Source of the DNA: Escherichia coli
GTDB taxonomy: Bacteria; Pseudomonadota; Gammaproteobacteria; Enterobacterales; Enterobacteriaceae
Strand: one strand, 5' to 3'
Length of the DNA: 64,000 nucleotides
Assembly: GCF_003334385.1 (NCBI RefSeq)
Contig: NZ_QOWN01000007.1
Part shown: piece by piece, positions 577-11,401 of the stretch
How positions within the stretch are numbered: position 1 is the stretch's first letter
How the letters are laid out: every line of letters begins with the position of its first letter
Translations under genes and position numbers: made by a program
The notes under the pieces: model-generated
Databases searched by the model: none
What the model was told of the DNA's origin: nothing
What the model saw: the letters and a program-made list of their open reading frames with translations, nothing else

Positions 577-1587
577 TTAATCATAACCCTTTGGATTTTT
601 GAGTTGCCAAAGCCAAGCATGCTTCAACATGTCCTCAAGATTATATTTTGCGCTCCAACTTAATTCAGCTCTAATCAATGATGGATCGGCCCAGCATTCA
701 GGCACATCACCCTTTCGTCGTTTGGAGATACGATAAGGAACAGAGACATTATTAACTCGCTCAAATGTATTTACTATCTCTAATACAGATGAACCAACAC
801 CCGTACCTAAATTATAAATATGTAGACCATTTGTTTTTTTATTATTCAATGCAGCTATATGTCCTTCAGCTAAATCGCAAACATGAATAAAATCTCTGAT
901 TCCAGTTCCATCAGGCGTACTATAATCATCGCCATAAATGGTCAAATACGGCAAATCCCCAATTGCGACTTTAGTCACGTAAGGTACTAGATTATTAGGA
1001 ACTCCTAGAGGATCCTCTCCAATCTCTCCTGAAGGGTGGGCACCAATAGGGTTAAAATATCTAAGAATAGTTATATTCCAATCGCCATCAGATTGAATTA
1101 AATCCATCAAAATTTGTTCGACCATATGCTTACTGGTCCCGTAAGGATTTGTAGTTCCTCCAGTTACACATTTTTCAGTTAATGGCATATTATCTGGCAG
1201 TCCATATACAGTCGCAGAAGAACTAAATATAATATCCTTTATCCCATTTATACACATTAACTGCAATAAGTTTAACGTTCCAACTACATTGTTGTGATAA
1301 TATGTTAAAGGTGCCCTACTAGATTCTGAAACTGATTTCAATCCAGCAAAATGAATAACCTTATTAATATCATGTTTAGAAAAAATTTCTTGCAGAGATT
1401 CAGCATTACAAATATCATAATCATAAAATACAAATTCTCCACCGCTCAGCGCTTTTATTCTGTCAATCACACTTGCTTTAGAGTTTGAAAAATTATCAAC
1501 AACTATGACGTTATATTTTAACTCAATCAATCGAATTAAAGTATGAGAACCTATATATCCTAAGCCACCAGTAACTAATATGTTCAT
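577..1587 (-). CDS. UDP-hexose 4-epimerase, GalE/Gne family (short-chain dehydrogenase/reductase), last gene of the O-antigen cluster
   Basis: 336 aa ORF starting MNILVTGGLGYIGSHT (NAD-binding GxxGxxG), with a YxxxK catalytic region (PYGTSKHM). ATG at 1585-1587 preceded by an AGGA-like RBS. Low GC like the rest of the cluster. Substrate (UDP-Glc versus UDP-GlcNAc) cannot be decided from sequence. Confidence 0.85.
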   Translation of the reverse strand: MNILVTGGLGYIGSHTLIRLIELKYNVIVVDNFSNSKASVIDRIKALSGGEFVFYDYDICNAESLQEIFSKHDINKVIHFAGLKSVSESSRAPLTYYHNNVVGTLNLLQLMCINGIKDIIFSSSATVYGLPDNMPLTEKCVTGGTTNPYGTSKHMVEQILMDLIQSDGDWNITILRYFNPIGAHPSGEIGEDPLGVPNNLVPYVTKVAIGDLPYLTIYGDDYSTPDGTGIRDFIHVCDLAEGHIAALNNKKTNGLHIYNLGTGVGSSVLEIVNTFERVNNVSVPYRISKRRKGDVPECWADPSLIRAELSWSAKYNLEDMLKHAWLWQLKNPKGYD

Positions 1588-1605
1588 GTTGTTTCCTTTA
1601 CAATG

Positions 1606-2727
1606 TCAAATGACATTAAATAATTTTCTTTTAAAAAGAATACATAACCAAGTAAAGGTAAAAAAGTAAGGAATTGCAGTTGTTCCGAGTGACATTGATG
1701 CTATCAAAAATGGAAGCACGATGACAATAGCATCCTCTTTGAGGTAAATGCACATAATGCATAATAATACTAAAAATAAAAATAATCCAATCATGCCAGT
1801 TTCAATTAAGAAAGTCAGAAACAGATTATGTGCCCCCATACCAATAACATCGACTGCATTTCCAAGACCAACCCCCAGCAATATCACCTCAACATTATTA
1901 TTCTTAATGTATTCGAGTGAATACCTAATTAAATCAAATTTACTTTCAAAGCTTATATCATCCGTGAATTTTTTAAATACAAACCATGAAAGAACAATAA
2001 GTAATACTGGCATAAGCATATATGAGAAAGCTTTGATGCGCTTATTTTTCATTAGAACAGAAAGCACAAAAAGCAATATCATTGCTATGATAGCAGCCCT
2101 AGAGAAAGTTAAAACAACCCCAACAAATAAAGCACAAAAAACAAGAAAGTATCTTACGCGCAATAAACCAACAATTTTAATATCTCTGAAGAAATAAAGA
2201 AAACAGGATAATATAAAAACAGCTTCTAGACCAACAAAGTTGGAATCGGCATACATAAGTGAGTTTACTTTATATATTTGAAAGCCGATACCCAGTTCTT
2301 CTAACTTATCAACATTTGCAAGATACGGATGTTGAATTCTCCAAAAACCATCAAGAATGAAAACGAATGAATAAAACAAGAAAACATTCAATAAATTTCT
2401 TTTTGTAATGCTTCGTCCCTTATAATAAAAATCCACCAACATTGGAGAAAGCAGCACCATACACAGATTAATTACAAGTGAAAAATGCGAGTTTATAAAA
2501 AGGAAAGTTGACAATAGTGATATAATAAGACTTATGAGTGTGAAAAAAGAAACATCCCATTTCCTGCAACTAACATTTGTAAGAAAAACCAAAATCATTG
2601 AAAGAATAAAAATAAAATAAACAGGACTAATCGCAGTTATTTGGGTTATATATAAACCACAAGATATCAACCATAAAAGGCCGATAAATGAGATTTTTTT
2701 ATCAGCATTATTATTTTCAAGTTTCAT
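1606..2727 (-). CDS. wzy: O-antigen polymerase (Wzy-type), polytopic membrane protein
   Basis: 373 aa, very hydrophobic with many predicted TM segments, AT-rich, no recognisable soluble domain. Position inside the O-antigen cluster next to glycosyltransferases. Called Wzy rather than Wzx because a better flippase candidate exists at 3992..5215. Confidence 0.6.
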   Translation of the reverse strand: MKLENNNADKKISFIGLLWLISCGLYITQITAISPVYFIFILSMILVFLTNVSCRKWDVSFFTLISLIISLLSTFLFINSHFSLVINLCMVLLSPMLVDFYYKGRSITKRNLLNVFLFYSFVFILDGFWRIQHPYLANVDKLEELGIGFQIYKVNSLMYADSNFVGLEAVFILSCFLYFFRDIKIVGLLRVRYFLVFCALFVGVVLTFSRAAIIAMILLFVLSVLMKNKRIKAFSYMLMPVLLIVLSWFVFKKFTDDISFESKFDLIRYSLEYIKNNNVEVILLGVGLGNAVDVIGMGAHNLFLTFLIETGMIGLFLFLVLLCIMCIYLKEDAIVIVLPFLIASMSLGTTAIPYFFTFTWLCILFKRKLFNVI

Positions 2728-9359: not shown

Positions 9360-9416
9360 TTCATCATTCCTTTTAATTCATCTTGCTCCATCATCACGAA
9401 CAAGATGCAAAAACTA

Positions 9417-10316
9417 TTAAATTGCTGTAGTCGTAAACAATTCGTTGAGCATTCGTTTCACGCCAACCTGCCAGTCAGGCAAGACAAGCGCAAAGTTCTG
9501 CTGAAATTTTTCTGTATTAAGGCGAGAGTTATGTGGACGACGAGCTGGTGTAGGATAGGCTGATGTTGGTACTGCGTTGAGCTTGTTGAGCGCAAGGGGA
9601 ATGCCTGCTTTGCGCGCCTCTTCAAAAACAAGCGCAGCATAATCGTGCCAGGTTGTGGTACCACTGGCTACCAAATGGTACAAACCTGCGACTTCTAGCT
9701 TATTCAATGCCACACGAATGGCATGCGCCGTACAATCAGCCAGCAGCTCAGCACCTGTTGGTGCACCAAACTGATCGTTAATAACCGCTAATTCTTCACG
9801 CTCTTTTGCCAGACGTAACATCGTTTTGGCGAAGTTATTTCCTTTACCTGCATAGACCCAGCTGGTCCGGAAAATAAGGTGCTTCGCACAATGCTCTTGT
9901 AATGCTTTTTCTCCAGCTAACTTGGTTACACCGTAAACATTTAGCGGTGCGGTTGCATCCGTCTCCAGCCATGGCGTGTCGCCATTTCCAGGGAATACGT
10001 AGTCAGTTGAGTAATGAATTACCCAAGCCCCAACTTCATTAGCCGCTTTTGCAATTGATTCAACGCTAGTCGCATTGAGTAATTGTGCAAATTCGGGTTC
10101 TGACTCAGCCTTATCTACTGCGGTGTGAGCCGCAGCATTAACAATAACATCAGGGCGAATTTTTTTGACGGTTTCAGCCACACCTTCAGGATTACTAAAA
10201 TCACCACAATAATCAGTGGAGTGAACATCAAGAGCAATCAAATTACCCAAAGGTGCCAGAGCACGCTGTAGTTCCCAACCTACCTGCCCTGTTTTGCCGA
10301 AAAGGAGAATATTCAT
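9417..10316 (-). CDS. rmlD: dTDP-4-dehydrorhamnose reductase
   Basis: 299 aa; [46 protein letters not shown] matches RmlD (SDR fold). Confidence 0.95.
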   Translation of the reverse strand: MNILLFGKTGQVGWELQRALAPLGNLIALDVHSTDYCGDFSNPEGVAETVKKIRPDVIVNAAAHTAVDKAESEPEFAQLLNATSVESIAKAANEVGAWVIHYSTDYVFPGNGDTPWLETDATAPLNVYGVTKLAGEKALQEHCAKHLIFRTSWVYAGKGNNFAKTMLRLAKEREELAVINDQFGAPTGAELLADCTAHAIRVALNKLEVAGLYHLVASGTTTWHDYAALVFEEARKAGIPLALNKLNAVPTSAYPTPARRPHNSRLNTEKFQQNFALVLPDWQVGVKRMLNELFTTTAI

Positions 10317-11401
10317 TACTGGCGGCCCTCATAGTTCTGTTCAATCCACGATTGATAGGCACCACTTTTCACATTCTCGACCCATTTTGCATTAGCCAGG
10401 TACCATTCCACCGTTTTACGAATCCCACTCTCAAACGTTTCCTGCGGTTTCCAGCCCAATTCGCGGCTAATCTTCTCTGCATCAATCGCATAACGGCGAT
10501 CGTGTCCCGGGCGATCGGCAACATAAGTAATTTGCTCGCGGTAAGATTTCTCTTTCGGTACAATCTCATCCAACAAATCACAAATAGTGAGCACTACATC
10601 GATGTTTTTCTTTTCGTTGTGTCCACCAATGTTATAAGTTTCACCCGCTTTACCTTCAGTAACGACTGTATATAACGCTCGAGCATGATCCTCGACATAC
10701 AACCAATCGCGAATTTGATCCCCTTTACCATAAATAGGTAATGCTTTACCTTCCAGAGCATTCAGAATAACCAATGGAATCAATTTTTCCGGGAAATGAT
10801 AAGGACCATAATTGTTAGAGCAGTTAGTCACAATGGTCGGTAAACCATAGGTTCGTTTCCACGCGCGGACTAAATGATCGCTTGATGCTTTCGAAGCAGA
10901 ATATGGGCTACTTGGTGCGTAAGCTGTTGTCTCAGTAAATAAGGGTAATTCTTCTTTATTATTTACTTCGTCAGGATGAGGCAGATCGCCATAAACTTCG
11001 TCAGTAGAAATATGATGAAAACGGAAGCTATTTTTCTTGTCGCCATCAAGAGCAGACCAGTAATTGCGAGCCGCTTCCAAAAGGACATAAGTACCAACAA
11101 TATTGGTTTCAATAAATGCCGCAGGGCCTGTAATTGAACGATCCACATGGCTTTCAGCAGCCAAGTGCATCACTGCATCCGGCTGATGCTGAGCAAAAAT
11201 CCGTGCCATTGCAGCAGCATCGCAAATATCCGCATGTTCAAAAACATAGCGTTCAGAGTCAGAAACATCAGCAAGTGATTCCAGGTTTCCGGCGTACGTT
11301 AATTTATCGACATTAACAACACTATCCTGAGTATTATTTATAATGTGACGAACTACAGCAGAACCAATAAATCCTGCGCCACCAGTAACAAGTATTTTCA
11401 C
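10316..11401 (-). CDS. rmlB: dTDP-glucose 4,6-dehydratase
   Basis: 361 aa; [43 protein letters not shown] with a YxxxK active-site region ([10 protein letters not shown]); first gene of the O-antigen operon on the minus strand. Confidence 0.95.

Follow-up and report, generated by a model that had tools for sequence, protein, structure and literature searches.

To which O serogroup does the O-antigen cluster in this stretch of Escherichia coli DNA belong? The stretch, referred to here as the window, comprises 64,000 nucleotides of contig NZ_QOWN01000007.1 (assembly GCF_003334385.1), and between its galF and gnd genes it carries eleven co-directional open reading frames (ORFs) on the minus strand, at 577-11401. 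An initial annotation made from the sequence alone described these as an AT-rich, Wzx/Wzy-dependent O-antigen operon and left the serogroup without a name. Our analysis showed that the cluster is almost certainly that of E. coli serogroup O48 (genotype Og48), placed at the standard galF-gnd locus and dependent on Wzx and Wzy. The gene coordinates and gene order proposed initially, all on the minus strand, agree with the ORF list: from the galF end the genes run rmlB-rmlD-rmlA-rmlC, then glycosyltransferase (GT) genes of families GT2, GT4 and GT2, wzx, a second GT4 gene, wzy and an epimerase gene of the galE/gne type.

Identification of the serogroup

Megablast searches with window positions 1-12700 against 5,426 complete RefSeq E. 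coli genomes returned seven genomes at a coverage of at least 80%. Four of the 5,426 (VE-T2, VE-T10, A17 and 1500) are 99.5-99.9% identical to the window over 12.7 kb, and VE-T2, compared directly, differs from the window at 8 of 12,700 bases, with an alignment free of gaps. In all four, RefSeq, through its Prokaryotic Genome Annotation Pipeline (PGAP), labels the wzx and wzy products 'O48 family O-antigen flippase' and 'O48 family O-antigen polymerase'. At the same time, NCBIfam holds no hidden Markov model (HMM) family for O48 Wzx or Wzy, which means that the 'O48 family' names must stem from another type of rule, and exact-sequence look-up and typing primers were therefore used for the assignment.

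The look-up found Wzy, the four glycosyltransferases and the epimerase to be residue-identical to UniProt entries of the A0A0A8J... series, Wzy being A0A0A8J6M8. Wzx is identical at 406 of 407 positions to the reference O48 Wzx, A0A0A8J4S4 (BAQ00973.1, AIG62382.1), the single substitution being A95T; the two fall into the same 90% cluster, and the reference belongs to the same accession series as the Wzy match. The Og48 typing primers, which supplementary file 1 of PMC7403468 attributes to Iguchi et al. 2015, target wzy with an expected product of 793 bp. Both find sites within wzy of the window with zero mismatches (2442-2461, minus strand; 1669-1688, plus strand), and the in-silico PCR amplicon, 1669-2461, is 793 bp long, equal to the published size. 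It is the match to genomes with 'O48 family' names, the Wzx and Wzy identities and the 793-bp amplicon that lead us to O48, and we found nothing against this identification. The comparison of wzx and wzy with typed serogroups, which the initial annotation had proposed, thus supplied the missing name; as that annotation had foreseen for a known and well-characterised serogroup, this takes away the novelty of the cluster and leaves the annotation of its genes standing. The O48 cluster is already catalogued and is an ordinary member of a well-known system.

Gene content, base composition and transcription

Profile searches (NCBIfam, Pfam) upheld the family assignments made initially for the Rml proteins, the transferases, Wzx and Wzy (Table 1). 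RmlB, RmlD, RmlA and RmlC each belong to one of the four families of the dTDP-L-rhamnose pathway and, like the terminal epimerase in its own family, score above the curated cut-offs. The Pfam scan of eight proteins, all the variable ones among them, gave family counts for the eight pooled rather than per protein; in this pool Glycos_transf_1 and Glyco_transf_4 were each found in two proteins, as were GT2-type families, and we attribute a Glycos_transf_2 match (2.6e-36) to the 304-aa GT2 and a weak Polysacc_synt_3 match (3.5e-5) to the 407-aa Wzx. Below the respective cut-offs, the 347-aa GT4 matched the profile of the PglJ alpha-GalNAc transferase (8e-20) and the 260-aa GT2 weakly matched the TIGR01556 rhamnosyltransferase subfamily (2.4e-7), the latter protein being a candidate rhamnosyltransferase. 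A crude hydropathy count gave about ten hydrophobic segments each in Wzx and Wzy. For wzx, RefSeq places the start at the ATG at 5215; the longest ORF begins with a TTG at 5305, a start that would overlap the upstream GT2 gene more deeply and is not needed.

Table 1. Features of the galF-gnd cluster and of associated elements; coordinates are those of the window unless another locus is given.
Feature	Coordinates	Strand	Evidence or remark
gnd (6-phosphogluconate dehydrogenase)	1-472	minus	downstream boundary; TIGR00873 E 7e-72, profile positions 1-154; ATG 472-470
gne/galE-type UDP-hexose 4-epimerase, 336 aa	577-1587	minus	TIGR01179 GalE 428 bits, cut-off 262
wzy, O48 O-antigen polymerase, 373 aa	1606-2727	minus	Pfam Wzy_C 1.1e-11; PGAP 'O48 family O-antigen polymerase'
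GT4-family (retaining) glycosyltransferase, 352 aa	2724-3782	minus	domain-level NCBIfam GT4 matches; PGAP 'glycosyltransferase family 4'
209-bp non-coding gap (3783-3991) and overlapping wzx 3' end	3783-4020	minus	probable vestige of an ATP-grasp gene
wzx, O48 O-antigen flippase, 407 aa	3992-5215	minus	identity to reference Wzx; PGAP 'O48 family O-antigen flippase'
GT2-family (inverting) glycosyltransferase, 260 aa	5181-5963	minus	Pfam GT2-type; PGAP 'glycosyltransferase family 2'
GT4-family (retaining) glycosyltransferase, 347 aa	5960-7003	minus	NCBIfam domain-level matches; Pfam Glycos_transf_1
GT2-family (inverting) glycosyltransferase, 304 aa	7005-7919	minus	NCBIfam EpsE/TuaG/WcaA-type GT2 matches, best 1.6e-42, below cut-off
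rmlC (rfbC), dTDP-4-dehydrorhamnose 3,5-epimerase	7916-8476	minus	TIGR01221 274 bits, cut-off 156
rmlA (rfbA), glucose-1-phosphate thymidylyltransferase	8484-9359	minus	NF012024 672 bits, cut-off 588
rmlD (rfbD), dTDP-4-dehydrorhamnose reductase	9417-10316	minus	NF007440 651 bits, cut-off 308
rmlB (rfbB), dTDP-glucose 4,6-dehydratase	10316-11401	minus	NF007490 798 bits, cut-off 649
JUMPStart element, 39 bp, with ops motif GGCGGTAG at 11481-11488	11477-11515	minus	exact ops match; operon leader between galF and rmlB
galF	11774-12667	minus	upstream boundary; NCBIfam TIGR01105 689 bits, cut-off 659; annotated galF in VE-T2
334-aa NAD-dependent epimerase (outside the window)	L005 3660-4664 (VE-T2); L007 2992-3996 (A17); L008 3721-4725 (strain 1500)		

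The location of the cluster between galF and gnd was established by NCBIfam equivalog models and by synteny with annotated genomes. The window edge cuts gnd, of which only the first 157 codons lie inside; its counterpart in VE-T2 is annotated gndA.

The DNA had been described as AT-rich from rmlC onwards compared with its flanks, and both the sliding and the per-gene G+C values bear this out. Calculated per 500 bases, the G+C content is 0.26-0.33 over 1501-8000 and 0.38-0.49 from rmlC to rmlB, against about 0.5-0.58 in the flanks (0.51-0.58 in most colanic-acid genes past 13.5 kb). Taken gene by gene, it is 0.29-0.35 in the seven serogroup-specific genes, 0.387 in rmlC and 0.43-0.47 in rmlA, rmlD and rmlB, the drop starting at rmlC. 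The evidence supports the initial picture of a low-GC O-antigen cluster that is horizontally mobile, depends on Wzx and Wzy, and encodes an L-rhamnose pathway together with four transferases and a 4-epimerase.

The leader of the operon holds a JUMPStart element, which we read directly as CAGTGCTCTGGTAGCTGTAAAGCCAGGGGCGGTAGCGTG; the ops motif within JUMPStart is the loading site of RfaH. A terminator scan found no terminator-like hairpin in the gaps of the operon, the 209-bp gap behind wzx included, and promoter-like hexamers in the operon were no commoner than in shuffled sequence, which fits a single transcription unit. RfaH loaded at ops would allow RNA polymerase to go on elongating until the end of the AT-rich operon. 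A second JUMPStart/ops element, CAGTGTATTGGTAGCTAAAAAGCCAGGGGCGGTAGCGTG, is found at 36226-36264 (minus strand), upstream of wza, as the leader of the colanic-acid operon. The motif GGCGGTAG as such occurs seven times in the window, with 1.2 copies expected, and two of the seven copies are those within the two JUMPStart elements.

The terminal epimerase and the O48 repeat unit

The last gene of the operon encodes an epimerase that RefSeq names GalE. Among solved structures, human GALE (E 5e-115) and the GalE of E. coli are nearest to it, and of the latter the Y299C mutant (1lrk) outscores the wild type slightly. Cys298 of the epimerase aligned to Cys307 of human GALE, a residue whose established counterpart in E. 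coli GalE is Tyr299. Access for N-acetylated substrates is gated by the residue at this position; a small cysteine at the gatekeeper position therefore supports Gne activity as far as sequence can, and we infer that the enzyme acts as Gne and supplies UDP-GalNAc. This is consistent with the published account of O48, in which gne belongs to the cluster and the repeat unit contains one D-GlcNAc and one D-GalNAc (PMC7685785), and it agrees with the initial expectation of a 4-epimerised hexose or N-acetylhexosamine in the unit. In the same account GlcNAc is taken as the initiating sugar because gne is present in the cluster (PMC7685785).

The structure of the O48 O-polysaccharide was published in 2006 (reference list of PMC7685785). 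The formula of the O48 repeat unit was not found in the literature searched. MacLean, Webb and Perry reportedly described in 2006 a pentasaccharide of two L-Rha, D-GalA, D-GalNAc and D-GlcNAc; indirect support for this composition comes from a later paper that cites their study among published data for assigning the D-configuration of GalA. GT2 enzymes invert, giving alpha-L-Rha from dTDP-beta-L-rhamnose, and GT4 enzymes retain, giving alpha-D-linkages from UDP-alpha-D-sugars, so that two GT2 and two GT4 enzymes would fit this five-sugar composition well.

For the assembly of the unit we propose the following course. WecA, encoded outside the window, would transfer GlcNAc-1-P to undecaprenyl phosphate to give Und-PP-GlcNAc, and the four transferases would complete the five-sugar unit, the two inverting GT2 enzymes adding alpha-L-rhamnose from dTDP-beta-L-rhamnose and the two retaining GT4 enzymes adding alpha-linked D-sugars, namely GalNAc and, if the unit has the reported composition, GalA. 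The pentasaccharide would be flipped by Wzx and polymerised by Wzy, with WzzB setting the chain length and WaaL ligating the product to lipid A-core.

A candidate source of UDP-GalA beyond ugd

A unit with GalA calls for UDP-GalA, and a candidate supplier is encoded outside the window. Beyond gnd, the genomes VE-T2, A17 and 1500 carry ugd, IS200C, a gene for an identical 334-aa 'NAD-dependent epimerase' (WP_000670925.1) and then wzzB. The WP_000670925.1 gene is present in 293 of the 5,426 complete E. coli genomes (about 5%), including a strain with the sister cluster described below and an O110 strain. The solved structures related to its product are 5u4q, from Klebsiella pneumoniae (E 3e-190), and 6zl6/6zla, deposited as 'Epimerase domain-containing protein' and, as we recognise it, presumably the UDP-glucuronate 4-epimerase of Bacillus cereus. 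On these similarities the ugd-linked epimerase may well be Gla, which would provide UDP-GalA, and it is probably a functional part of the O48 locus. The absence of gla from the cluster had at one point appeared to be a puzzle for a GalA-containing unit; we dropped this point, since the genes that provide UDP-GalA and further common precursors are located outside the O-antigen clusters (PMC7685785) and O48 genomes have a Gla-like gene next to ugd.

Alternative readings

Could the cluster represent a new O-genotype that merely resembles O48? Such a relative does exist: a sister cluster in the complete genomes 2017.17.01CC, JNEC-KY203 and 18KM2445 keeps the gene order of the window and adds one gene, and its Wzy and Wzx are 76.7% and 78.2% identical to those of the window. 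The Wzy and Wzx of the window itself, however, are 100% and 99.8% identical to O48 proteins on record, and the Og48 primers, perfect in the window, do not suit the sister cluster, where the forward primer finds no site even when three mismatches are allowed and the reverse primer mismatches at three positions. We therefore consider a separate genotype extremely improbable. Hardly more probable, in our view, is that the strain is O48 by sequence yet rough, making no O antigen because of an inactivating change or a polar effect of the 209-bp gap. Nine substitutions separate the window from VE-T2 over window positions 1-15,700, and truncated forms of several of the cluster genes do occur in other genomes, but here all eleven ORFs are full length, with lengths equal to those of the annotated genes, and six of the seven serogroup-specific proteins are identical to the A0A0A8J... 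entries, Wzx differing by its one substitution. The gap, moreover, contains no terminator-like hairpin and is identical in all four O48 genomes.

Within the O48 reading, Pfam backing for Wzx taken by itself is weak (3.5e-5), and the call relies on identity to the reference protein. The linkages assigned to the four transferases are ones that we infer.

The sister cluster and the gap between wzx and the second GT4 gene

The sister cluster (locus L002) has not diverged evenly from that of the window. Protein identity is 94% for the first GT2, 90% for the first GT4, 87% for the second GT2 and 86% for Gne, against 78.7% for the second GT4, which is close to the values for Wzx and Wzy given above. 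The Gla-like epimerase beyond ugd is common to the three O48 genomes inspected and the sister-cluster strain. We saw no serogroup name for the sister cluster in the RefSeq annotation or in the source names.

Its extra gene, found in the sister cluster only, lies between wzx and the second GT4 gene (L002 5255-6280) and encodes a 341-aa ATP-grasp-like protein, with weak matches of the D-Ala-D-Ala-ligase (ATP-grasp) type and one RefSeq record reading 'ATP-grasp domain-containing protein'. At the corresponding place the window has the 209-bp non-coding gap; of the 5,426 complete E. coli genomes, only the four with the O48 cluster contain the gap sequence. A vestigial frame opens with an ATG at 4020-4018, within the 3' end of wzx, and meets an in-frame TAA at 3975-3973, stopping at codon 16. 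By blastn, homology with the sister cluster runs from wzx to position 3959, that is, 61 nt into the ATP-grasp ORF, leaving 162 bp of the window unaligned; Smith-Waterman alignment extends the homology collinearly to nt 139 of the ATP-grasp gene, with 2 of 300 shuffles reaching the score. (Blastn and Smith-Waterman were used because a MAFFT alignment of the gap misplaced the end of wzx.) The 3' half of the gap, on the other hand, showed no significant similarity to the ATP-grasp gene, with 69 to 104 of 300 shuffles reaching the score. These alignments are suggestive of a 5' stump of the ATP-grasp gene, and it is the 5' stump only that they support. Deletion or decay in the O48 lineage is the more economical explanation, because a simple insertion in the sister lineage would have to involve a gene without its start and end.

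Compared over its full length, the sister ATP-grasp protein shares 32% identity (E 8e-37) with the one encoded in the O110 cluster, and the O110 antigen contains GalA that carries D-allothreonine in amide linkage (PMC7685785). By analogy, this suggests, and does no more than suggest, that the lost gene may have served to amidate a uronic acid. We can therefore propose, as a tentative idea to which we give not quite an even chance, that O48 is a deletion derivative of a 12-gene, ATP-grasp-bearing ancestor, of which the rarer sister cluster would be a surviving representative, and that the functional locus includes the Gla gene beyond ugd. If true, the O48 antigen would differ from the sister antigen mainly in having free rather than amino-acid-amidated galacturonic acid, and wzx, wzy and one GT would then have diverged to accept the changed unit.

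Sequences of O48-type Wzx, Wzy, GT4 and epimerase are also on record from Escherichia albertii, and E. fergusonii has entries for proteins of the sister cluster, so that neither cluster is confined to a single Escherichia species.

Exchange of the cluster with its flanks

Comparison of the window with VE-T2 beyond the cluster showed an abrupt change in similarity. The first 17,700 or so positions contain 10 mismatches, the stretch 17,726-21,799 contains 97, and identity is 96.9-98.7% further on. This places a recombination breakpoint relative to VE-T2 between 17,154 and 17,726, adjoining an array of repetitive extragenic palindromic (REP)/BIME type (16805-17281) and the 3' end of wzxC. The exchanged block, 17.7 kb long or longer, took in galF, wcaM, wcaL and wcaK along with the O48 cluster. 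The low G+C content and the near-identity of this block of about 17.7 kb to a strain that is otherwise 1-2% divergent show that homologous recombination in the flanks carries the cluster from one lineage to another.

The array itself occupies the wzxC-wcaK intergenic region and consists of a tandem 96-bp unit in 4.9 copies (91% matches) with REP/BIME-like palindromic units; a similar array is present in VE-T2. Two further differences between the window and VE-T2 were seen far from the cluster. The gene yegJ (ORF 49997-50458, plus strand; region 49747-50531) has the position that it occupies in many E. coli genomes, between yegI and pphC, and is absent from VE-T2, an ordinary presence/absence polymorphism; several other genomes carry IS1 in this region. 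At 52108-52708 the alignment blocks overlap, which implies that the two sequences carry different numbers of copies of the ibs/sib toxin-antitoxin repeat.

Significance and comparison with known systems

For practical purposes the result makes the window typable as O48, a rare serogroup, and it has little significance beyond correct labelling. O48 is listed among the Shiga-toxin-producing serogroups, and the structural study of its O antigen is said to have used an O48:H21 enterohaemorrhagic E. coli (EHEC) strain. At the same time, the ATP-grasp stump, the linked Gla-like epimerase outside galF-gnd and the mapped breakpoint together offer a small, testable example of an O-antigen type that possibly arose by loss of a modification gene.

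Set beside the E. coli O48 reference cluster, the window has the same eleven genes in the same order at the same locus, and apart from the Wzx substitution A95T nothing of substance differs. The rfb cluster of K-12, of serogroup O16 (rmlBDAC-wzx-glf-wzy-wbbH-L), was compared by description; it shares with the window the locus, the position of rmlBDAC at the galF end and the Wzx/Wzy pathway. Unlike O16, the window has neither glf nor wbb genes, its transferases, wzx and wzy are different ones, and an epimerase gene stands at the gnd end, so that the initial view that this is not the K-12 arrangement proved correct.

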